Under the pieces are notes generated by a model. That model had not been told where the DNA came from, did no database searches, and was given only the letters and a program-made list of their open reading frames with translations. The translations under genes were made by a program, and so were the position numbers. From positions 2,848,001 to 2,912,000 of the forward strand of contig OZ219753.1 of assembly GCA_964291315.2 (NCBI GenBank): a stretch of 64,000 bases of DNA, given 5' to 3'. The DNA comes from Candidatus Poribacteria bacterium (GTDB lineage Bacteria; Poribacteria; WGA-4E; WGA-3G). The first letter of the stretch is position 1. Each line of letters begins with the position of its first letter. Positions 33,879-55,576 of this stretch are shown here, piece by piece.

Positions 33879-36590
33879 ATGACTACAACAATAGAGAAAC
33901 GGCTCAGCAGTTATACATCAGACTTGGAAGTGTCTCTCGAGGATCTGCAGAAGCAGTTGGTGGCCTTCATTCAAGATGAACGCGAACACCTGAAAACTCG
34001 TATTCTAGAGGGCGAAAGTGGGTTTGAGGCTTGCAAAATTCACACACAGATGTGGGACACGGTTATTCAAAAGGTTTATGAGGTGGCCTCCTTTCAGATT
34101 CTGGATGAATACCGGAAACAGATTGAGGTCCTAAAGATGCTGCCGAACCTTAACGCGAACGACTTAGAGAGCGGATTGGCGGATTGGTGTCCGGATATCG
34201 CCCTCTACGGCGTTGGGAGTTATGGCAGAAATGAGCTCTGCTATTTTTCGGATGTAGACGTTGTCTACACCTCTTCTGTAGATTTAGAAGATATTTACGA
34301 TGAGAGTACCCTTGAACTGATCCGATGGTTCTACGACTTTTTTGACGGGCTTCACTCGGTGATTCCGGGATTCGAATTCAGTTTTATCTATCGACCGCTT
34401 GCGGATATAGCGAAGTGGAACTATCAAGATATGACGGCATTGATTGATATGCGGTTTATTGCGGGTGATCCGGCCTTGACAGAGCAGTTCCGGAAAGCGG
34501 TGAGCTCCGAAAAGTCAGATATTTCTCTTGTGCTGGATCTCTTGAAGTCAAAAGCTGCTTCCTTCAAGGCTGCCGAAGACACAATTTATCTTAATCAACC
34601 CAACTTGAAAACTGGGCGCGGTGGGCTACGAACGCTTCAATATGCGCTCTGGATATGTGGACTTCCAGACTTTACACCTATTCCGGATCTCTATGAACGG
34701 TACGGTGATGAGCAGCTCATCTTGTCTCTTGATTTCATGTTTAAGGTCCGCAATCTCCTGCATGTGCTCGCCAATGGTCCCTATGATGATTTGACGTATC
34801 ACCCCGAAAAAGGGGATACACTACAGGCACAGATCGCTCGGGTTCTTGGATTTGCAGGTGAAAGCGATGAAGAACGTTACGCGTTTATGACAGAATTTTA
34901 TGCCAAGGCGAAGTATCTACATTTCAAAGCTGAACTTCTAATACGCAAGATGTTGGCTAATGGGATTCCTATCTCGGATGTGCTTGCAGTAAGGACTGAT
35001 CTCCTGTATTGCATCGATAATAATTTTGGTGAACTTAATGCAGATGAGCTTTTTATCCTCTTCGCCTACTTCCAGCAGTACGATTTTGAAATTGATGCGT
35101 CTCTTGCTACATTTATCTCTCGTTACGTTCAAGCGTTTGATTGGCGTTCTTTCCAAAATCGGATGGTGGAATTGATAAGTGTACCTGGAGATGTTGAGAA
35201 GACCTTGACTCGTCTACATCGGCTTAATATTTTGTCTCACCTCGGTGAAGGTGGTATTCTTTTTGAAAAAGCGATGCTGACACGAAGCGAGCGGAGCTTG
35301 GATCCGTATACGGTTGGGAAACATACCCTGGTTGCAATTGGGCATCTTGATGAGATCCGTAAAACGGAGCCAAGCCAGCCGTTTGGTGGTGCCCGTTTTA
35401 GTTCCCCGGCATCGGCATCGCCGACTTCTGAGTTGGAGGATCTGAATACGGCGTTTCGTTCGCTTTCGGATCCGACGCCGCTCTACATGGCGCTTTTCCT
35501 GCACGATATAGATAAACCTGATCCGACGCATCCGGTGACGGGGGCCGAAAAAGCGGAACGTATCGCGCCCGAATTTGGGTTCAATTCAAAACAGACGGAT
35601 GAGATATGCTTTCTCATTCGAGAGCATTTGACGATGATAAATTTAGCGCGCTATCATCATTGGGATGAGAGCACTATTTCCGAATTCTGTAAAGAAGTTA
35701 AGTCTCTGGAGCGTTTAACGGGGCTCTATCTGCTCACTTATTGTGATTCTAAGGCGAACGGTTTGCAAAATTTCAGTCATGTCGCTAAACATAACTTGAA
35801 GAGTTTATACGAGGCGGCGCGAACCCGCTTTGTGGGGCAAGAGGAAAAACAGTGGGGTGTCTTTGCCCCCGTTGAGGAATTTCAGCGGTTCCTGCACTAC
35901 ATGCCGGTTTCGTATCGTATTAGTGTTACTCCTGAAGAGATAGCGATGCATATAAAGATGACGGGCCAAATTGAAACTGGTCCTGTAGCGTCAGACGGGA
36001 TGCCGAGTCCCGGGGTCATTCAATTTGTTGATCGTCCTGGATTTACTGAGTTACATCTGTGTAGTTCGAGCGGCATCGGGAAATTACACACAGTGAGTGG
36101 TCTGTTCTTTGCTAACGGCATAGATGTCCGAGATGCGCGCGTCTACACCAAACAGGACACAAACGTTGAGCTTGAAATCTATCGTCTCGTTCATCAGCCG
36201 CCACATCATAGGGGAGAACCGATGCCCCTTGACGAAGAACTCAAACGGGATTTGGATTTTGATATCCGCAGTCTATTGGCAGAAGAAGTGACGCTCAGCG
36301 AGATTTTTGATAGGCATTACGCGAACATAAACGAGACATGGCAGGTTGATGAGGTCAGAGTTGAAACTGCGCGTAGCTACACGGAAATTGTCGTTCTCGG
36401 TAAAGAAAAGATGGGATTTCTGCACTATTTCAGTGGTATCCTTGCGAATCTTGGTTTGAACGTTGAGATGTGTAAGTGCTCGGGCTTAGGCGGGCAGGCG
36501 GTCGATCGGTTCTATGTGCAATCGGTGGCTGATCCGAAGGCGGTGTACGCTGATATTATGGCGGCCTTGGCGGCTAAAAGCGAAAAGTAG
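33879..36590 (+). CDS. glnD: GlnD-like [protein-PII] uridylyltransferase/uridylyl-removing enzyme
   Basis: NTase 'GSYGRNEL...SDVD', 'PNLKTGRGGLR', HD domain 'YTVGKH...LHDIDK', two C-terminal ACT-like domains. Confidence 0.78.
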   Translation: MTTTIEKRLSSYTSDLEVSLEDLQKQLVAFIQDEREHLKTRILEGESGFEACKIHTQMWDTVIQKVYEVASFQILDEYRKQIEVLKMLPNLNANDLESGLADWCPDIALYGVGSYGRNELCYFSDVDVVYTSSVDLEDIYDESTLELIRWFYDFFDGLHSVIPGFEFSFIYRPLADIAKWNYQDMTALIDMRFIAGDPALTEQFRKAVSSEKSDISLVLDLLKSKAASFKAAEDTIYLNQPNLKTGRGGLRTLQYALWICGLPDFTPIPDLYERYGDEQLILSLDFMFKVRNLLHVLANGPYDDLTYHPEKGDTLQAQIARVLGFAGESDEERYAFMTEFYAKAKYLHFKAELLIRKMLANGIPISDVLAVRTDLLYCIDNNFGELNADELFILFAYFQQYDFEIDASLATFISRYVQAFDWRSFQNRMVELISVPGDVEKTLTRLHRLNILSHLGEGGILFEKAMLTRSERSLDPYTVGKHTLVAIGHLDEIRKTEPSQPFGGARFSSPASASPTSELEDLNTAFRSLSDPTPLYMALFLHDIDKPDPTHPVTGAEKAERIAPEFGFNSKQTDEICFLIREHLTMINLARYHHWDESTISEFCKEVKSLERLTGLYLLTYCDSKANGLQNFSHVAKHNLKSLYEAARTRFVGQEEKQWGVFAPVEEFQRFLHYMPVSYRISVTPEEIAMHIKMTGQIETGPVASDGMPSPGVIQFVDRPGFTELHLCSSSGIGKLHTVSGLFFANGIDVRDARVYTKQDTNVELEIYRLVHQPPHHRGEPMPLDEELKRDLDFDIRSLLAEEVTLSEIFDRHYANINETWQVDEVRVETARSYTEIVVLGKEKMGFLHYFSGILANLGLNVEMCKCSGLGGQAVDRFYVQSVADPKAVYADIMAALAAKSEK

Positions 36591-38225: not shown

Positions 38226-40064
38226 ATGAAATCAGAACAATTCGGTAATATGTCTCGTGAATTGTGGCAATCTCTGCCGAATGTGCCGGGGGTTTATCTG
38301 ATGAAAGCCTCGGATGGTACGGTTCTCTATGTTGGGAAAGCCGTCCGTTTGCGTGCTCGTGTCCGTTCGTATTTTCGAGAGAAATCCGTGCATCCGTTAA
38401 CCTTGCAGATGATGCGGTATGTCACAGAGATCGATTACACTGTCACGGAGACTGAAGTTGAGGCTCTCATTTTAGAGAATAATCTCATTAAGGCGCATCA
38501 GCCTCGTTACAACGTAAAACTCAAGGATGATAAGCGCTACCCCTATTTGCAGGTAACCGTCAATGAACCGTTTCCACGTATCCGGATTACTCGCAGAGCT
38601 GAAAACGACGGGACCCGGTATTTTGGTCCATTCGTTCATGTGCGCGCGATCCGGCAGACCCTCAAACAGTTGACTAAGCTATTTCCTATTCGTACCTGCG
38701 CGCTGCCCCTCAAGGACATCGGTAATAGGTATCGGGTCTGCTTAGACTACCACATTGGACGTTGTCCTGGTCCGTGTGCCGATAAAATACCTGTCTCAGA
38801 TTACGGGCAGATAGTTCGGAAGGTGTGTCAGTTTTTAAGTGGAAATACAGATGGTGTTGTTAAGGAGTTGACCGCGCAAATGGAGGCTGCTGCTGCGGCT
38901 CTGAACTTTGAAACAGCGGCGAAATATCGGGATACACTTAAAGCCATTCAACAGGCGATTACGACACAGAGTTTGGATACTGTTTCCGGGGCGGATGAGG
39001 ATATTATCGGCATTGCTGCTCGCGCTGACATTGCATGTGTGCAGCTCCTACGGGTGCGAGATGGCAAACTTCTTGAACGTGAGCACTACTATCTCAACGA
39101 TGCGGATCCAGGGGCTCTAGCGGCGGCGTTAAATGCGTTTGTACCGCAATATTATCAGGACGCTGTTTTCGTTCCCAAAGCTGTTGTTTTACCGATGCCT
39201 ATTGAAGGAGCAGAACTGATTGAAGATTGGCTTAGCGAAAAGCGGGGGAACCGTGTTGGGCTGCATGTGCCACGGGCGGGTCGGCTGAGAAAATTACAGG
39301 TTTTGGCCTCAAAAAATGCGGAGGTTCTTCTGACTCAACGGGAGCAGAACGTGGTTTATAGCGGTGGGATTGATCCTGCCCTCGTTGAACTTCGGGAGCT
39401 GATGGGGTTGGATCGGCCCGTTAGACGAATTGAGGCGTTTGATATTTCAAATCTTGGCGATAGGTTCGCTGTGGGTTCGATGGTGGTTCTGGAAGATGGA
39501 AAACCGGCGTCATCGGAGTATCGCCGATTTAAGATCCGGACGGTTGCAGGCCAGAACGATTTCGCGATGATGCAAGAGGTTATCACCCGGCGCTTCCGGC
39601 GTGCGGTTGCCAATGATGAAAAGTTTAACAAACTGCCGGACTTAATCTTAATCGACGGTGGGAAGGGGCAGCTGAGTGCGGCGCAGAAAGCGATGCAGAC
39701 TTTCGCTACTGCTCGTCTGCCTGATATTCCGATGATTGCCCTTGCGAAGCGGGTCGAAGAGATTTTTGTTCCTGATAAGCCGGTGTCGATTGTGTTGCGG
39801 AAAGATAACCCAACTCTACACCTGATTCAGCGGTTACGAGATGAGGCGCACCGATTTGCGGTTACCTATCACCGGCGACTCCGACAGAAGTCGCTGAGTG
39901 CATCCGTGCTTGACGAGATTCCGAATCTCGGTCCGAAGCGGAAGCAGGCGCTGCTCAAGCGTTTTGGTTCGATAGAGGCGATTCGGGAGGCAAGCTTGGA
40001 CAGCTTGCTCTCTGTGAAAGGCATACCTCGCGGCGTTGCGGAGAATATCCGAAAGCATCTGTGA
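38226..40064 (+). CDS. uvrC: Excinuclease ABC subunit C
   Basis: GIY-YIG 'PGVYLM...LYVGKA', 'LKDDKRYPY', 'EAFDISN', 'IDGGKGQL', 'RDEAHRFA', HhH. Confidence 0.97.
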   Translation: MKSEQFGNMSRELWQSLPNVPGVYLMKASDGTVLYVGKAVRLRARVRSYFREKSVHPLTLQMMRYVTEIDYTVTETEVEALILENNLIKAHQPRYNVKLKDDKRYPYLQVTVNEPFPRIRITRRAENDGTRYFGPFVHVRAIRQTLKQLTKLFPIRTCALPLKDIGNRYRVCLDYHIGRCPGPCADKIPVSDYGQIVRKVCQFLSGNTDGVVKELTAQMEAAAAALNFETAAKYRDTLKAIQQAITTQSLDTVSGADEDIIGIAARADIACVQLLRVRDGKLLEREHYYLNDADPGALAAALNAFVPQYYQDAVFVPKAVVLPMPIEGAELIEDWLSEKRGNRVGLHVPRAGRLRKLQVLASKNAEVLLTQREQNVVYSGGIDPALVELRELMGLDRPVRRIEAFDISNLGDRFAVGSMVVLEDGKPASSEYRRFKIRTVAGQNDFAMMQEVITRRFRRAVANDEKFNKLPDLILIDGGKGQLSAAQKAMQTFATARLPDIPMIALAKRVEEIFVPDKPVSIVLRKDNPTLHLIQRLRDEAHRFAVTYHRRLRQKSLSASVLDEIPNLGPKRKQALLKRFGSIEAIREASLDSLLSVKGIPRGVAENIRKHL

Positions 40065-40187
40065 ACAGTCTTGAAGTTTTCTCCCGGGCTGCACGAATTT
40101 GCACAATTTATTTTACCGGCTGCCCCAGTTTGTGCATGAACAACGCTGATATCGGCAAATTATTGCACTTGTCTAGCCTTTCTAGAT

Positions 40188-40202
40188 TGGCACGCTATTT
40201 GC
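40188..40202 (+). promoter_or_regulatory. Sigma54 (RpoN) -24/-12 promoter
   Basis: TGGCACG-ctat-TTGC is an exact fit to TGGCACG-N4-TTGC. (T/G)GCA-N6-TGCA sites lie upstream at 40090-40103 and 40154-40167. Confidence 0.8.
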
Positions 40203-40213
40203 TATGTTGTGAA

Positions 40214-40297
40214 TGTCAAAGCTGGCGCGGCTGCGAAACCCTCAAAGGGGGATCAGTCTTAATTTTAGGTATTTTAAGTACTAACGCGAGCTTGATA
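40214..40297 (+). ncRNA. Putative structured small RNA or leader of unknown family
   Basis: Begins at the expected sigma54 +1. The 5' arm tgtcaaagctggcgcg can pair with the 3' arm cgcgagcttgata and encloses two hairpins (folded by eye). Confidence 0.45.
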
Positions 40298-40370
40298 ATT
40301 ATGTTGAGTCGGTTGAGGTATGCAGTTACGAAGACAGAAACGCTCTTTTTGAAAAGGAGATTTTACAAAC

Positions 40371-41402
40371 ATGAGAACCATGAAGCGAAGATATCTCTAT
40401 ACTATAGGCACCCTCGCTGTCGTCGTTACCCTCGGTCTCATCGGCTGGCGCCTGCTGCAACCCACGGCGCCGCAACCGCGTGTCGTATACAAACCTGCCC
40501 ACACCGAAACGGGCGCGATCCCGACATCGCAACGGACAGACGACCCGGCGACGGCGGCGGCCCCCACAGAAACGCAGACCCCCACGGACAGACAGCAAGC
40601 CGATCGCGATCAAGCCATCGAGAGAGCCATGAAGACCCCCGCGTATCGCGAATATGAGAGAAAGCAACGCGAAAAGATCCCCGGATTTAATATGAGTTTA
40701 TGGTGGGACTTTCTTGAATCGCAAGGCATCCCCCACTCGGGGCGTCTGCTCCAGGAAACCTACTTCCGTGAAGAATTCCCGACCGGTGAATACGAGGATT
40801 ATGAGCCGATGATGCGCAAACGACTCGCGGCACTCTTCGTGGCAGCTGATCTCCCGAAAGAACCTTCGCACATCTCCGCGGTGCGCCTCGATACCATCCA
40901 AGTCGTCAGCCAATTCCGAAATGAATCTTGGGCAAATACGATCTGGATGCGTGGATATTTCAATGGATACGATGGCGATATGGCCTGGGCGAACGAGATC
41001 CGGAATAATGCCGCCAGCATCCTCGCCGCGCCCGCCGACACCGCAAGCGACACGGAGACACTGGCAACGCACGCCACGTCTACGACCCGTCCGACGGGAT
41101 CAGCCGAAACACCCGTGGAAACGCAACCGACGCGCGACGATGCCCAAACCGCTTTTGAAACGTTAGATCTGGCACTTCCAGCGTTGGAACAGCAACTCAC
41201 CGAACACGGGGTGCCAGAAATATCCAATGTCCTCAACGCGTCGGCGTTGAAAACTGAGATGAGTCAACGTTTTTCACCCGATCGTTTCAACACAGCATTG
41301 CAGACCTTGAACCGATATGGACCCGAAGCCGGACTCCGCAGGCTCAAGGCATCCGACCCCGAGGTGGCTACATACCTCGAAACGCACCTCAAACAACAAT
41401 AG
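40371..41402 (+). CDS. Hypothetical membrane-anchored or secreted protein
   Basis: AAGGAG RBS, N-terminal TM, T/P/A-rich linkers, C-terminal 'YGPEAGLRRLKASDPEV'. Confidence 0.75.
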   Translation: MRTMKRRYLYTIGTLAVVVTLGLIGWRLLQPTAPQPRVVYKPAHTETGAIPTSQRTDDPATAAAPTETQTPTDRQQADRDQAIERAMKTPAYREYERKQREKIPGFNMSLWWDFLESQGIPHSGRLLQETYFREEFPTGEYEDYEPMMRKRLAALFVAADLPKEPSHISAVRLDTIQVVSQFRNESWANTIWMRGYFNGYDGDMAWANEIRNNAASILAAPADTASDTETLATHATSTTRPTGSAETPVETQPTRDDAQTAFETLDLALPALEQQLTEHGVPEISNVLNASALKTEMSQRFSPDRFNTALQTLNRYGPEAGLRRLKASDPEVATYLETHLKQQ

Positions 41403-41415
41403 GAGACCCCAGAAA

Positions 41416-42258
41416 ATGTCAGATAAACACCGCTCCTACACCGCTTATCTCAATGCTGCCCTCTGTCTACTCATTTGGATCCCCGGGTTCGCCGTGGCAA
41501 GCGATCTCAAGATATACACGCACGAGAAGAGAGACCCCACGCCGCTTGAGAAAACCTACTTCGAAACACTGAAAAAGCAGTTCCCCGGCGAGGTGCTCGA
41601 TGCGAACTTAGAAACGCTACACCTGCTTTCCGATAGTGAGGAATATGTTCAATTTCTCACAGAAAAGTACCCCGAACATGCACCCTTTACAACCTTCCAA
41701 GGGTTCTTTTACACCGTGCTGCCCCCGAAAACACGCTACTTCCCCTTCTTCAAGCAACAATTCGGGGTCGAAAAAATCGAAGAGATAGACACCGATGAAC
41801 TGTTCCTCGCACATGCCTATGCGTCAAGCAGCTGGGTCACTCGGGGCTATAACCGGGGCGGGGATAAATTTCCCGTTCCCACCCGTTTCGGTATCCAACT
41901 CCTGATCACGACACCCCAGGGCAGAGAAATGCTGGAACGGCGCCTCGGTATTGAGCGACATCGGAAAACCGACATAGACGACATGGGCCGCATCCTTCGC
42001 ACTTTCGAAACGCTGCTCCAATTAGGTGGGAGACAACTCGAAGAGGATGTCCGCTGGATAAAAACCCTTTTTGAAGAGCATGGTCCCTCTGAAGGGATGC
42101 TCTGGTTAGCCGTTCAAGACCCGCGGCTCCTCGAGCTTATCCTCTACACCTTTTCAACCGATAAAACGTTTCTAAAATCTGTTTTTGACCCGCTTGAGAT
42201 GTACCTTGACAGACCACGATCCAAACGCCGCTCCCCAGAAAAGCCGAACGCAAACTGA
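41416..42258 (+). CDS. Hypothetical secreted protein
   Basis: AGGAG RBS overlaps the upstream stop, signal-peptide-like N-terminus, C-terminal 'HGPSEGMLWLAVQDPRL'. Confidence 0.75.
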   Translation: MSDKHRSYTAYLNAALCLLIWIPGFAVASDLKIYTHEKRDPTPLEKTYFETLKKQFPGEVLDANLETLHLLSDSEEYVQFLTEKYPEHAPFTTFQGFFYTVLPPKTRYFPFFKQQFGVEKIEEIDTDELFLAHAYASSSWVTRGYNRGGDKFPVPTRFGIQLLITTPQGREMLERRLGIERHRKTDIDDMGRILRTFETLLQLGGRQLEEDVRWIKTLFEEHGPSEGMLWLAVQDPRLLELILYTFSTDKTFLKSVFDPLEMYLDRPRSKRRSPEKPNAN

Positions 42259-42438
42259 CACCCGAAAGAAGATTGCGACCGGTGTCGTTGTATCTGAGAG
42301 AAGAGGGGAACAATTTTCGCGCGAGCTTGATAATTATTGGGTTCACCTTTAGAATAAAGAGAAACGCGAGTACACCGTAATAGATTTTGCTTACAAGAGA
42401 AGAGCAGAAGCGGTGTACAAGTTCATTGCACAAACTAA

Positions 42439-42475
42439 GAGGGTTAGGGGACAGAAGAATCGCCCCACCCTTTTT
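42439..42475 (+). terminator. Putative intrinsic terminator
   Basis: agggt-tagggg ... cccc-accct stem followed by a T run. Confidence 0.5.
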
Positions 42476-42507
42476 CCAAACTCACGTTAAGTACTACAAA
42501 ATAGAAA

Positions 42508-45120
42508 ATGCAAGAAAGAAACATCAAGATAGCGGCCGTCTTAATCATCGTTTTGAGTGTTGCCGCGTTGCACATAAAACTCTATCGGTTTTCCGAAGTG
42601 ACACACGATGGGGCGTTACAGGTGTTGGTCTGCTTAGGTCGTGTTGTTGCTATAGATACAAGTGAGGAAGCGGACCAGGTACTGTCTTTCCGAATTATTT
42701 CTGGACAGTTTCGCGGTAAAACGGTTAAAGTGAACAATGTTTGGACGGGTCGCGCCTTTGGGGACCGCGTGCTTCGGAAGAATGATGTATTATTTCTGGA
42801 TATTCCGCTCCGTGATCCGGCAAATCCGAGGGTTGATACTGTTTCACTGCGGGAATATTTCCGCACGCCGTTTTTACTTTATCTTGCAGGGGCATTGGGT
42901 ATTCTGATGATACTTGTTGCTGGTATGAAGGGGGTTCGTGCTATTTTAACCCTCTTTGTTACTTCGCTGACTGTGCTGTATGTGCTGGTACCACTCACTG
43001 TTGCGGGTTACAATCCGATTGCGGTTGCCCTCTTGATTGCTGCCTTTCTGACGTTTGCGACTTTTCTTCTCATTACGGGGCTTAGTTTCAAATTGATCTC
43101 GGGTGTACTTGGCACTCTTGGTGGTTTAGCCGCTGTTGGAGTCTTATCTGTTTTAAGTCAACAGGCGATGGCATTGACTGGATTGGCCCAAGAGTTTGGT
43201 TTTTTGGAACTCGGTATTGCGTTGTGGCGGACATCTGCTTCACACGGTTGGAATTTTACGGGGATTCTTTCTGCGGGCATCATCTTAGGTGCTGTTGGGG
43301 CGATGATGGACGTGAGCATGTCTATTTCTTCAAGTGTGCATGAAGTCAAGCAGGTGAATCCGAACATCACGGTGCGTCAAGCGATCCGCGCTGGATTGAA
43401 TGTCGGTCGCGACATTATGGGGACGATGGCAGATACCCTCATTTTTGCGTATCTTGGTGCGCACATGATGACGATGCTTCTGCCGCGCATTGAGTTTCCG
43501 GAAGTGGGTATCCTCTATCCTTTCTTACGGCTGGTTAACGATGAAGCGACTGCAGTTGCGATTATTCAAGCGGTTGTCGGTACGATCGGCTTGGTACTCA
43601 CTGTCCCGATTGCTGCGGGTATTGCGGGTTTCCTGACGCAATACACGAAGGTTGACACATCCGAGATTCATGAGGATTTGCCCTCGGAAGAAGAATTAGA
43701 GGAGCTTTTCCGTGCTGATCCACCTCGCAGCAAGGCTCGAATCGCTGTGCCTATCGCTATGGCAGTTATCCTAACTGCGACAGTCTTTGTTTATTATCGC
43801 ACGCATGAGCTCTCTGCAACGATCTCTGAGCAGCGTGATGCTCAAGGAAAGCCGATCAATACGTCAGAATATGCAAAGGGCAAGGTGATTCGACTGCTTG
43901 AATCGAACGGTAATTTCCTTTTTGATATTGACAGTCGTGCTGTGAGCGAGTTGGATGCTGGTATCGTGCCAGAGGTTTTGCGTGCGGAATTCAAACGTCA
44001 TGATATTCTATTTTCTGATGCGGTAAAGGTATCGGTTAAACCGTGGAAGGACAGTCGTTGGTTGCTCTCAGATGAGACGTACGAGCAGACCTATAGTGTC
44101 CGAGCCCTGGAAGAATCGGGGAAAAGCGTCCTCAAAGTTTACGAGTCGAAGAGCGAGCATCATATTCTTGAGGTCGAGATGCTGAGTGGGATATATAAAG
44201 GTAGACGGTTGGTGTTACGGAACATTGTGAATCACAATATGCCGTTGTTGAGCATTCCTGCGGAGCCCGGGGACGTTATTCTCTGTCGTGTCGCGGGAGA
44301 GCCGGAGCAGATTGGGCTTGTGAACATCGTTCAAGATTACAGCAGAGACCGGTTCCTAATTTGGATGGTAGGAGGGATGCTTCTCCTGATTATCTTTGTT
44401 GGTAGGATTGAGGGGATTCGGACGGCTTGTGCGATGTTAATTTCTGCCCTGGTGATTTACTTTTTCATGTTGCCGCTCATCTCGGAGGGAGCAAATGCGG
44501 TGTTCATTGTAACGCTGACTTCCGGTGTTGTGGCCTTTGTGTCTCTGGTGTTTGTTATTGGCCCGAGTCGGAAGACGTTTTCAGCGGTGCTTGGAACGAT
44601 GGGTGGGATTTTGGTTGCGGGTTTAATCGTCCTACTTGCACAGCAGCATCTCCATTTTTCAGGGTTGGAGAACGCGATCTCGGCTGATATTGTGGAGGCG
44701 ACCCGTACACCGCCGTTCGATTTTGTGCAAATCCTTTTGGCTGGGATGCTAATGGGGGTTTTAGGGGTTGCTGTTGACGGGGCAATTGAGGTGGCATCTA
44801 GCATGGAAGAGATTCGAAAAGCGAACCCGAAGATGCCGACGTGGCGATTGATTGCCTCGGGTCTTAACGTCGGGACGGACATTCTGGGCACGATGGTGAA
44901 TACGTTGGTTTTCGCCTATCTGGGTGTGGAGTTGCTTTTGGTTGTTACCGTTACAGCGCCGAATCTGGATTTTTTCAAATCCCCGCCGGTTCAGCTGCTG
45001 AGTATTGGTGTTGTATCTGCGGAGATCGTCCGGCTGCTTGCCGGAACACTCGGGCTTGTCTTGGCGATACCTATTACCGCCATGATTTGTGCGTTCTGGA
45101 ATCCAAAACAGGGGACGTAA
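42508..45120 (+). CDS. Tandem YibE/F family membrane protein with an inserted soluble domain
   Basis: Two copies of 'GAxxD...SIxSS...GLNVGxDIxGTMxxTLxFAYLG...GTxGLVLxxPI'. Confidence 0.85.
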   Translation: MQERNIKIAAVLIIVLSVAALHIKLYRFSEVTHDGALQVLVCLGRVVAIDTSEEADQVLSFRIISGQFRGKTVKVNNVWTGRAFGDRVLRKNDVLFLDIPLRDPANPRVDTVSLREYFRTPFLLYLAGALGILMILVAGMKGVRAILTLFVTSLTVLYVLVPLTVAGYNPIAVALLIAAFLTFATFLLITGLSFKLISGVLGTLGGLAAVGVLSVLSQQAMALTGLAQEFGFLELGIALWRTSASHGWNFTGILSAGIILGAVGAMMDVSMSISSSVHEVKQVNPNITVRQAIRAGLNVGRDIMGTMADTLIFAYLGAHMMTMLLPRIEFPEVGILYPFLRLVNDEATAVAIIQAVVGTIGLVLTVPIAAGIAGFLTQYTKVDTSEIHEDLPSEEELEELFRADPPRSKARIAVPIAMAVILTATVFVYYRTHELSATISEQRDAQGKPINTSEYAKGKVIRLLESNGNFLFDIDSRAVSELDAGIVPEVLRAEFKRHDILFSDAVKVSVKPWKDSRWLLSDETYEQTYSVRALEESGKSVLKVYESKSEHHILEVEMLSGIYKGRRLVLRNIVNHNMPLLSIPAEPGDVILCRVAGEPEQIGLVNIVQDYSRDRFLIWMVGGMLLLIIFVGRIEGIRTACAMLISALVIYFFMLPLISEGANAVFIVTLTSGVVAFVSLVFVIGPSRKTFSAVLGTMGGILVAGLIVLLAQQHLHFSGLENAISADIVEATRTPPFDFVQILLAGMLMGVLGVAVDGAIEVASSMEEIRKANPKMPTWRLIASGLNVGTDILGTMVNTLVFAYLGVELLLVVTVTAPNLDFFKSPPVQLLSIGVVSAEIVRLLAGTLGLVLAIPITAMICAFWNPKQGT

Positions 45121-51962: not shown

Positions 51963-52047
51963 GCCGGAGTGGTGAAATTGGTAGACGCACTGGATTCAAA
52001 ATCCAGCGGGCCCTGGGTCCATGTCGGTTCGAGTCCGACCTCCGGCA
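51963..52047 (+). tRNA. tRNA-Leu(CAA), CCA not encoded
   Basis: GCCGGAG/CTCCGGC acceptor stem, anticodon arm ctgga-ttCAAaa-tccag, long variable arm, GTTCGAG T-loop. Confidence 0.97.
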
Positions 52048-55171: not shown

Positions 55172-55525
55172 GGGGGTGTAAAGGTTTCGACGAAGGTGAA
55201 TGAAATATAGGTTGCATGTCGAGGTCTCCGCAGGCCTCGTTAAACAGGCGGAACACTTATAATTGCTGATCAAGAATTAGCACTAGCTGCTTAATAACGC
55301 GGCTACGCTTGGCAGTCTTGTCGCTCGTCAGGCCTGCTAAAGCGTCGCAATACGGGCTAGTTGCTTGTTTTTTCTCAAGGAACAGGCGGCGAATCTGCTT
55401 TTGAGATAGTCTATTCTGAATCTTGCATGGGAGAGTCTGATAGATGAATCTAAAAACCTGTGATAAGCATGTAGTAGCCTCTATTGAAACGTCTTCGGAC
55501 GCGGGTTCGATTCCCGCCACCTCCA
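55172..55525 (+). ncRNA. ssrA: tmRNA; tag (A)ADQELALAA** at 55265-55297
   Basis: 5' GGGGGTG...TTCGAC, 3' GGGTTCGATTCCCGCCACCTCCA, tag ORF ending LAA-stop-stop, adjacent to smpB. Confidence 0.97.
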
Positions 55526-55576
55526 TTTCATGCGGCTGTCCTGTTTTTGTCCGTAATACATTGATGCTAAAGTGAT

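Follow-up and report, generated by a model that had tools for sequence, protein, structure and literature searches.

A predicted sigma-54 promoter of a YibE/F-like gene in Candidatus Poribacteria, with a leader probably split by a species-specific MITE-like element

Promoters recognised by sigma-54 (RpoN) carry a GG at -24 and a GC at -12 in fixed spacing (TGGCAC-N5-TTGCW), with activator sites expected some 70–150 nt upstream. The binding sites of NtrC in enteric bacteria are built from half-sites of the TGCAC...GTGCA type, which stand one base further apart than those of the candidate sites described here, and for this reason we do not present the latter as NtrC sites. To our knowledge sigma-54 control has not been described for any YibE/F-like gene, and our literature searches on sigma-54 in Poribacteria and on YibE/F returned nothing relevant, just as a search on miniature inverted-repeat elements (MITEs) in Poribacteria found nothing.

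The locus lies between uvrC and a gene for a YibE/F-like membrane protein, within a stretch of 64 kb of Candidatus Poribacteria DNA that was analysed as a whole and is called the window below. A preliminary description had read it as a sigma-54 promoter driving a novel RNA of ~85 nt with a three-way junction. Our comparison with related genomes leads to a different picture, to which we give a probability of about 0.85: a sigma-54 promoter with a leader split by a species-specific MITE that carries a two-ORF insert, where the junction is the fold of a chimeric leader and no conserved RNA gene. The promoter and its two neighbouring genes comprise the following features.

38226-40064, plus strand: uvrC (Pfam UvrC_RNaseH_dom, UVR, GIY-YIG, HHH)
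40090-40105, plus strand: predicted upstream activator site 1, TGCAC-N6-GCACA, 98 nt upstream of TGGCA
40121-40136, plus strand: predicted upstream activator site 2, TGCCC-N6-GTGCA, 67 nt upstream of TGGCA
40188-40203, plus strand: predicted sigma-54 -24/-12 element TGGCACGCTATTTGCT, an exact match to TGGCAC-N5-TTGCW
40214, plus strand: predicted transcription start, 12 nt past the C of the -12 GC
42508-45120, plus strand: YibE/F-like membrane protein gene, 870 aa (Pfam YibE_F, 398.7 bits)

The exact -24/-12 element named in the preliminary description could be confirmed and is the sole match to TGGCAC-N5-TTGCW in the window, where shuffled sequence gives 0.09 matches on average. Across the 4.4-Mb genome the motif occurs exactly 23 times, while about six chance matches per genome would be expected by extrapolation from the window shuffles. 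Many of the 23 show the extended form TTGGCACG-N4-TTGCTAT, as at our locus, and many have an ORF start 36–106 nt downstream. The presence of rpoN, on which the earlier reading depended, was verified (Sigma54_DBD with 191.2 bits in an open frame of 678 aa, G000:C4:3240534-3241004), and the Sigma54_activat domain has 11 genomic matches, eight of them with at least 208 bits and none inside the window. The start at 40214 was placed by what we take to be the usual sigma-54 geometry, and both promoter activity and start site are predictions from the DNA. A promoter scan of the plus strand from 39900 to 40600 found no sigma-70-like promoter.

For the comparison with relatives, the 306-nt intergenic DNA was too divergent for a BLAST search (which in 40 relatives gave no orthologous match and one marginal repeat match), and the orthologous regions were reached via the YibE/F-like protein. 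Its orthologues are found in 57 of 60 genus genomes and are 84–91% identical over the first 297 residues. At all 29 genus loci examined the YibE/F-like gene directly follows the 3' end of uvrC, with a gap of 187–1377 nt (mostly 190–310) compared to 2443 nt here, and all 29 carry TGGCAY-N5-TTGCW in between. The element stands at most 450 nt from the ATG in 23 of them and further upstream, behind inserted genes, in the other six; by eye from the DNA these inserted genes appear to be Uma2-like or PD40-like. Out of 80 loci returned from the wider Poribacteria, 78 have the full 600 nt upstream of the gene, and within this distance 55 show the promoter pattern and 60 the upstream-site pattern TGC[AC]C-N6-GNGCA, including lineages with a YibE/F-like protein only 72–80% identical. 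The promoter pattern is missing from 23 of the 78 loci, for which only these 600 nt were covered.

An alignment of 16 sequences revealed what is conserved in front of the gene. Of its 24 invariant columns, 23 fall within the two upstream sites (site 1 TGC.C...G..C, site 2 TGC.C...G.GCA) and the -24/-12 element (TGGCA and TTGC), the last one being a T a few bases upstream of TGGCA, and the DNA between them varies freely. Site 1 stands 98–99 nt upstream of TGGCA in the relatives, while the distance of site 2 (67 nt) is identical in all of them; in the present genome the right half of site 1 is degenerate, two positions off the GTGCA/GGGCA of the relatives. Earlier, two sites of the loose form (T/G)GCA-N6-TGCA had been proposed, a pattern that is not enriched in the window (7 found, 4.6 expected). 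One of them, at 40090-40103, stands as the conserved site 1, but the other at 40154-40167 is not conserved in relatives. The conserved site 2 was absent from that earlier list. The exact motif, the presence of rpoN and of activator genes and the conservation of the element together with its two upstream sites support a genuine and widely conserved sigma-54 promoter at 40188-40203 with two predicted upstream activator sites, and as far as sequence comparison can tell it ancestrally drives the YibE/F-like gene directly after uvrC throughout Candidatus Poribacteria. The sigma-54 promoter of the preliminary description is thereby upheld, and so is its alternative suggestion of a leader, in the sense that the stretch is predicted to be the 5' leader of the transcript from this promoter.

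A further suggestion had been nitrogen regulation, as a glnD-like gene is located about 4 kb upstream of the promoter. This gene (33879-36590) indeed encodes GlnD_UR_UTase and HD domains, but three unrelated genes, namely an epimerase-family gene, a Methyltransf_4 gene and uvrC, lie between it and the promoter. The predicted target of the promoter is the YibE/F-like gene, and this pair of sites (at -99 and -67) recurs at just one further promoter of the genome, found ahead of a DUF4159 protein (G000:C4:2342225). Among the genes of the locus we found neither a nitrogen-assimilation gene under the promoter nor an operon with the glnD-like gene, and the idea of nitrogen regulation is not borne out.

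The gap between uvrC and the YibE/F-like gene is widened in the present genome by a composite insertion with the following parts.

40275-40281, plus strand: left target-site duplication TAAGTAC, identical to 42488-42494
40282-40302, plus strand: outer MITE head (terminal repeat) TAACGCGAGCTTGATAATTAT, also the 3' strand of the closing stem of the proposed junction
40303-42319, plus strand: 2,017-bp insert inside the MITE head, with two ORFs
40371-41402, plus strand: inserted ORF of 343 aa, in the 2,017-bp insert
41317-42258, plus strand: inserted ORF of 313 aa, in the 2,017-bp insert
42317-42487, plus strand: inner head (2 mismatches), MITE body and tail ...CCAAACTCACGT, a complete MITE
42327-42355, plus strand: sigma-70-like TTGATA-17-TAGAAT inside the MITE, 10 of 12 consensus positions
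42488-42494, plus strand: right target-site duplication TAAGTAC, directly after the MITE tail

The likeness of the outer head to other copies stops at base 21, and the insert that follows has the 18-bp sequence CGCGAGCTTGATAATTAT on either side as a direct repeat (40285-40302 and 42320-42337). The bases just before each 18-bp copy differ. No flanking duplication is seen when the inner head is paired with the tail, while the outer head and the tail ending at 42487 are bordered by the same seven bases, and from this shared TAAGTAC it follows that a single insertion extends from 40282 to 42487. After removal of MITE and insert with one TAAGTAC kept, the leader becomes colinear with those of the relatives across the junction (here ...TTTTAAGTAC directly followed by TACAAAATAGAAAATG, in the relative L019 ...TCTTAAATCCTACAAAATATAAAATA), and the ancestral distance from promoter to ATG would be 91 nt. 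The complete MITE at 42317-42487 folds with a z of -3.81. The insert differs from its surroundings, with a GC content of 0.55–0.61 over 40300-41350 and a GC skew that is negative through most of 40300-42400 and positive in the flanks. A close DNA copy of it was not found at any other place in the genome, no gene of its kind lies between uvrC and the YibE/F-like gene at the loci of the 29 relatives, and searches of Pfam, NCBIfam and Atlas returned no family for its two ORFs. No sigma-70-like site precedes these two ORFs on the plus strand.

Contigs from three of four runs (X1 record 3, X2 record 10 and X4 record 27) run from the end of uvrC through the intergenic region and the head into the beginning of the first ORF, so the arrangement is not an artefact of one assembly, even if the best match may be the source sample. 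One of the bridging contigs has ~4% other letters, which indicates that a diverged strain has the same arrangement. A joint between 40302 and 42320 in the X3 data was considered as an insert-free allele and is better read as another copy of the MITE: one of its sides spans no more than 21 letters, and the sequence of its loose end at 40282 is similar to the flank of another repeat copy, at G000:C4:92625.

To characterise the repeat, we searched for the 21-mer at 40282-40302 and obtained 60 genomic copies with up to three mismatches, three of them identical, and 91 with up to four. With at most two mismatches the present genome contains 38 copies, and across 60 other congeneric species the count ranges from 0 to 6, being zero in 56. 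A search of the intergenic DNA within the present genome yielded nine further matches, all to the part at 40266-40309. In the other copies the head runs into a common body with one to several hairpin modules and the copies end in ...TTCAAACTCACGT, which repeats the head imperfectly in inverted orientation; when the consensus head ACGCGAGCTTGA is compared with the reverse-complemented tail ACGTGAGTTTGA, 10 of 12 bases agree, and 11 of 13 once one more base is included. The 26 complete copies measure 104–292 bp, and ten of them are flanked by perfect duplications of 5–6 bp starting with TA, which is the case for only 9 of 650 mismatched flank pairs. At ten loci that contain MITE copies, Rfam reported tRNAs nearby and weak matches overlapping these tRNAs, and no family for the element. 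By these sequence features the repeat is a MITE-like element that has expanded in the present species.

With the repeat in hand, the proposed RNA can be weighed against the chimeric leader. Taken as a rival reading, that proposal would have the promoter drive a novel, self-contained sRNA or riboswitch-like leader of ~85 nt with a three-way junction under selection as a structure. All of the helices named for it (tgtca/tgata, agct/agct, cgcg/cgcg, gctg/cagt, ccct/aggg and cttaa/ttaag) are present as written, and the minimum-energy fold of 40213-40300 is a three-way junction with -26.3 kcal/mol, which for these 88 nt, picked for their fold, corresponds to a z of -2.53 (shuffle mean -19.0, 4 of 200 shuffles folding as well). 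The junction also remains in the minimum-energy fold of 40214-40360, but there z drops to -0.24, and the leader without the MITE (40214-40281) folds no better than shuffles (z +0.32). The proposal is not supported, as the closing helix requires the terminal repeat of the dispersed MITE-like element as its 3' strand, and this repeat is missing from the locus in all 29 genus relatives; as the MITE burst is species-specific, the structure must be very young. In an alignment with eight relatives, eight of the 13 closing pairs (the inner ones, agct/agct and cgcg/cgcg) have letters in the present genome only, and the five outer pairs are A/T-rich DNA that pairs in a minority of the rows. The inner helix of arm 1 pairs in 40.6% of the alignment cells, the whole junction in 67.6% of the cells of the leader alignment compared to 64.1% in shuffles, and no covariation supports its helices, since partners slid by +3 columns score higher than the structure in the eight-relative alignment. 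Of the checks that had been proposed together with the RNA, covariation across relatives of the uvrC-yibE/F region gave no support for the junction, and the Rfam search found no match in the stretch: ranked by E-value, 39900-40500 gave two chance-level matches, both inside uvrC, and at gathering thresholds nothing was detected in the window but one tmRNA and one tRNA, neither of them within the stretch. A scan of the plus strand from 39900 to 40600 detected no terminator-like site. The junction under selection is thus already largely refuted by comparison and we give it next to no credence, the fold being in all probability that of a chimeric leader in one genome. A more recent selection could be imagined, in which the MITE insertion was retained as its terminal repeat pairs with the leader and thereby creates a novel fold that regulates the inserted ORFs from their 5' UTR. 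The junction would then be expected as the predicted minimum-energy fold, which it is, and the pairing between MITE head and upstream flank (-17.3 kcal/mol) ranks first among the 60 copies, with the next at -11.2, and is matched by only 0.6% of 3000 random genomic 75-mers, a rank that would equally suit a selected junction. Nevertheless, about 0.4 such strong pairings are to be expected across 60 copies, and therefore we treat this one as chance. The closing helix joins the 5' strand of an older leader hairpin (AGCUGGCGCG, AGCU..CGCG) to the MITE head (CGCGAGCU), and as AGCU and CGCG are each self-complementary, sharing both tetramers is sufficient for pairing; both are already present in leaders of relatives without the MITE. 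Chance being plausible, the pairing is probably fortuitous and its retention by selection very unlikely.

The older hairpin itself deserves separate consideration, and it has left a remnant in the present genome.

40221-40257, plus strand: leader hairpin remnant, GCUGG...UCAGU with CCCUC-AAA-GGGGG inside, then CUUAAUUUU (model R1, 61.8 bits)

The closest relatives and the present genome have the stretch GCTGRCGCG...GTCAGCCTTAATTTTTGG in common, and it might be that this hairpin (GCUGRCGCG...GUGUGUCAGC), followed by CUUAAUUUUU, is a functional RNA element of a subclade of the genus that is decaying here. It could attenuate the sigma-54 transcript or end it prematurely, or else stabilise it as a 5' stem-loop, and any of these roles would be compatible with the promoter and split leader preferred here. 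RNAalifold on seven leaders predicts one 13-pair hairpin with a U-rich run within 2–3 nt, the stems in five of six relatives reach -13.2 to -17.5 kcal/mol (z -0.9 to -3.0), and the inner stem differs in sequence among relatives and stays paired. At the same place the relative G007 (L020) has a different perfect hairpin with the same starting GCUGGCG. Of the 65 genus genomes, eight contain a single match each to a covariance model of this hairpin; seven of these matches are at the coordinates of the uvrC-YibE/F intergenic region, and the eighth (G078) was read directly there. Against a function stand the weak covariation, with a single pair altered on both sides and 62 of 500 shuffles attaining the observed score of 0.212 as well, the interrupted U-run and the fact that the model did not find the hairpin in the other 57 genomes. 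G017 (L015) has lost it by deletion, G016 (L018, z +1.42) and the present genome (z +0.66) have it in decayed form, and the terminator scan did not call the decayed stem here; in distant Poribacteria the ~56 nt from TGGCA to ATG leave no room for it. A functional hairpin is possible but on balance rather unlikely. Inspection of the relatives' leaders by eye for a conserved leader peptide showed a short ORF in L016 that is not kept in L017. As for the promoter, one could argue that the -24/-12 match is a chance motif without promoter function, as a handful of chance matches per genome is obtained by extrapolating the window shuffles. Such a motif would hardly be retained at all 29 genus loci and at 55 of the 78 wider ones amid varying DNA, nor would it be accompanied by paired upstream sites at fixed spacing in a genome with rpoN and activator genes, and we regard a chance motif as extremely unlikely.

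On this basis we propose that the MITE inserted ~60 nt downstream of the predicted start and duplicated TAAGTAC, in the present genome alone among those examined. The 2,017-bp piece presumably entered the MITE head afterwards or came with the MITE. RpoN holoenzyme would bind 40188-40203, an activator at 40090-40136 would open the complex, and transcription starting near 40214 would run through the chimeric leader into the two inserted ORFs. The promoter would now face these ORFs first, with the YibE/F-like gene 2.3 kb away and perhaps reached by read-through or served by the sigma-70-like site inside the MITE. We also considered that the two-ORF piece integrated as a circle into the MITE terminal repeat, used as attachment site, which would leave the 18-bp core as direct repeat on both sides, with differing bases in front of each copy as a single crossover would predict. 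If true, MITE ends in this symbiont would be landing pads for gene cassettes without an integrase, and two unknown genes would have been placed under a conserved sigma-54 promoter. However, paralogues of the first ORF are generally not beside MITE heads (among 13 matches checked, three sites show one weak head-like match each within 6 kb and the others none), and this makes the circle a doubtful explanation.

The candidate for a new RNA class is therefore removed and replaced by an ordinary, well-documented case of a sigma-54 promoter. Species-specific MITE repeats and the neighbouring DNA can together yield a convincing multi-branch fold, and the reading of a single genome cannot separate such a fold from an RNA gene. 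What is gained instead is the phylum-wide footprint of the putative enhancer sites of a sigma-54 promoter in uncultured sponge symbionts, in front of a membrane protein of unknown role, together with a testable regulon lead, as the paired sites also precede the DUF4159 gene. The leader between promoter and gene appears to be a recurrent landing place for foreign DNA, with a MITE and two ORFs here and inserted genes in 6 of 29 relatives.

In comparison with known systems, the locus resembles NtrC-family sigma-54 promoters in the canonical spacing of -24 GG and -12 GC, in two dyad-like TGCAC...GTGCA sites centred ~85 and ~115 nt upstream of the predicted start, which are about three helical turns apart, and in the presence of rpoN and AAA+ activator genes in the genome. 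It differs from them in its predicted target, a YibE/F-like membrane-protein gene, and in that no activator gene is encoded in the window. With intrinsic terminators and attenuators seven relatives share the 13-pair hairpin and U-rich run inside a 5' leader, but this run is not continuous, a competing anti-terminator pairing was not identified, and most of the genus, with the present genome among them, lacks the hairpin or has it in decayed form. The repeat is like bacterial MITEs in its short, non-coding copies with imperfect terminal inverted repeats and TA-starting target duplications, in its tens of copies found almost entirely in one species and in its strong single-strand folding. It differs in the modular interior of one to several hairpin units and, for the copy at this locus, in the 2-kb two-ORF insert that has the 18-bp repeat of the element's own head on both sides.

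Insertions have landed repeatedly in the leader that separates the YibE/F-like gene from its conserved sigma-54 promoter. Six of the 29 relatives carry a gene at this position (loci L024, L026, L032, L030, L037 and L042). Judged by eye from the DNA, three of these genes are PD40/TolB-like and the other three resemble Uma2, and a remnant of the 3' end of the Uma2-like gene, likewise read by eye, is still present at L028. The genome studied here holds a two-gene insert within the 21-bp terminal repeat (head) of a MITE-like repeat (MITE) in this leader. It is listed here together with the RNA genes found elsewhere in the window.

Window 40303-42319: 2,017-bp piece holding ORFs of 343 and 313 aa; it lies within the MITE head, 18 bp of which flank it as a direct repeat
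Window 51963-52047: tRNA gene
Window 55172-55528: tmRNA gene (189 bits)

Neither insert ORF was assigned to a family in Pfam, NCBIfam or Atlas. The family of the first ORF (343 aa) is multi-copy, with 14 matches in this genome, and it has matches in 50 of 60 genomes of the genus. The 2,017-bp piece may have entered the MITE head by crossover with a circle, by site-specific integration or by repair synthesis. In the contigs of four public runs window 40459-42320 is represented by very many short contigs with abundant variant letters (698 matched contigs in run X2); its flanks are found in single contigs of about 0.9-1.2 kb, and near-identical variants of both insert genes may be common in these samples.

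Elsewhere in the genome, several MITE copies begin a few bases past strong sigma-70-like promoters (TTGACA...TATAAT) and others directly 3' of stop codons. The MITE's TA-starting targets may favour -10-like sequences, and by sequence match TTGATA within the head can serve as a -35 box. Copies also adjoin tRNA clusters, and a head-like 21-mer, CAACGCAACCTTGATAATTAT, with three mismatches lies 3' of each gene copy's stop codon in tandem gene arrays, in which the C-terminal coding DNA appears rich in alanine and charged residues.

G000:C4:655306, 2193010, 2222947 and 2932185, C3:222481 and C4:490310: examples of MITE copies starting after a sigma-70-like promoter or a stop codon
G000:C4 about 518 kb (L011): MITE beside a cluster of five tRNAs, L011 1873-2509
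G000:C4 about 408 kb (L012): MITE beside a cluster of three tRNAs, L012 1711-1961
G000:C4:1331230-1334888 and 2368675-2369605: tandem gene arrays with CAACGCAACCTTGATAATTAT

The YibE/F-like protein itself (window 42508-45120) contains an internal duplication: here and in relatives alike, residues 46-297 align at 25% identity with another part of the same reading frame, some 1.6 kb further downstream; the Pfam call is limited to the C-terminal residues 617-863.

The promoter of this gene has a counterpart elsewhere in the genome.

G000:C4:2342126-2342240 (L137 227-341): second predicted sigma-54 promoter, TGGCACGGAAATTGCA, where the site TGCCCGTTTTTGTGCA occurs twice in identical form, at -99 and -67

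A 492-aa DUF4159 protein begins 69 nt downstream of this predicted promoter. The site layout matches that of the promoter of the YibE/F-like gene, and the two genes probably have one activator in common.
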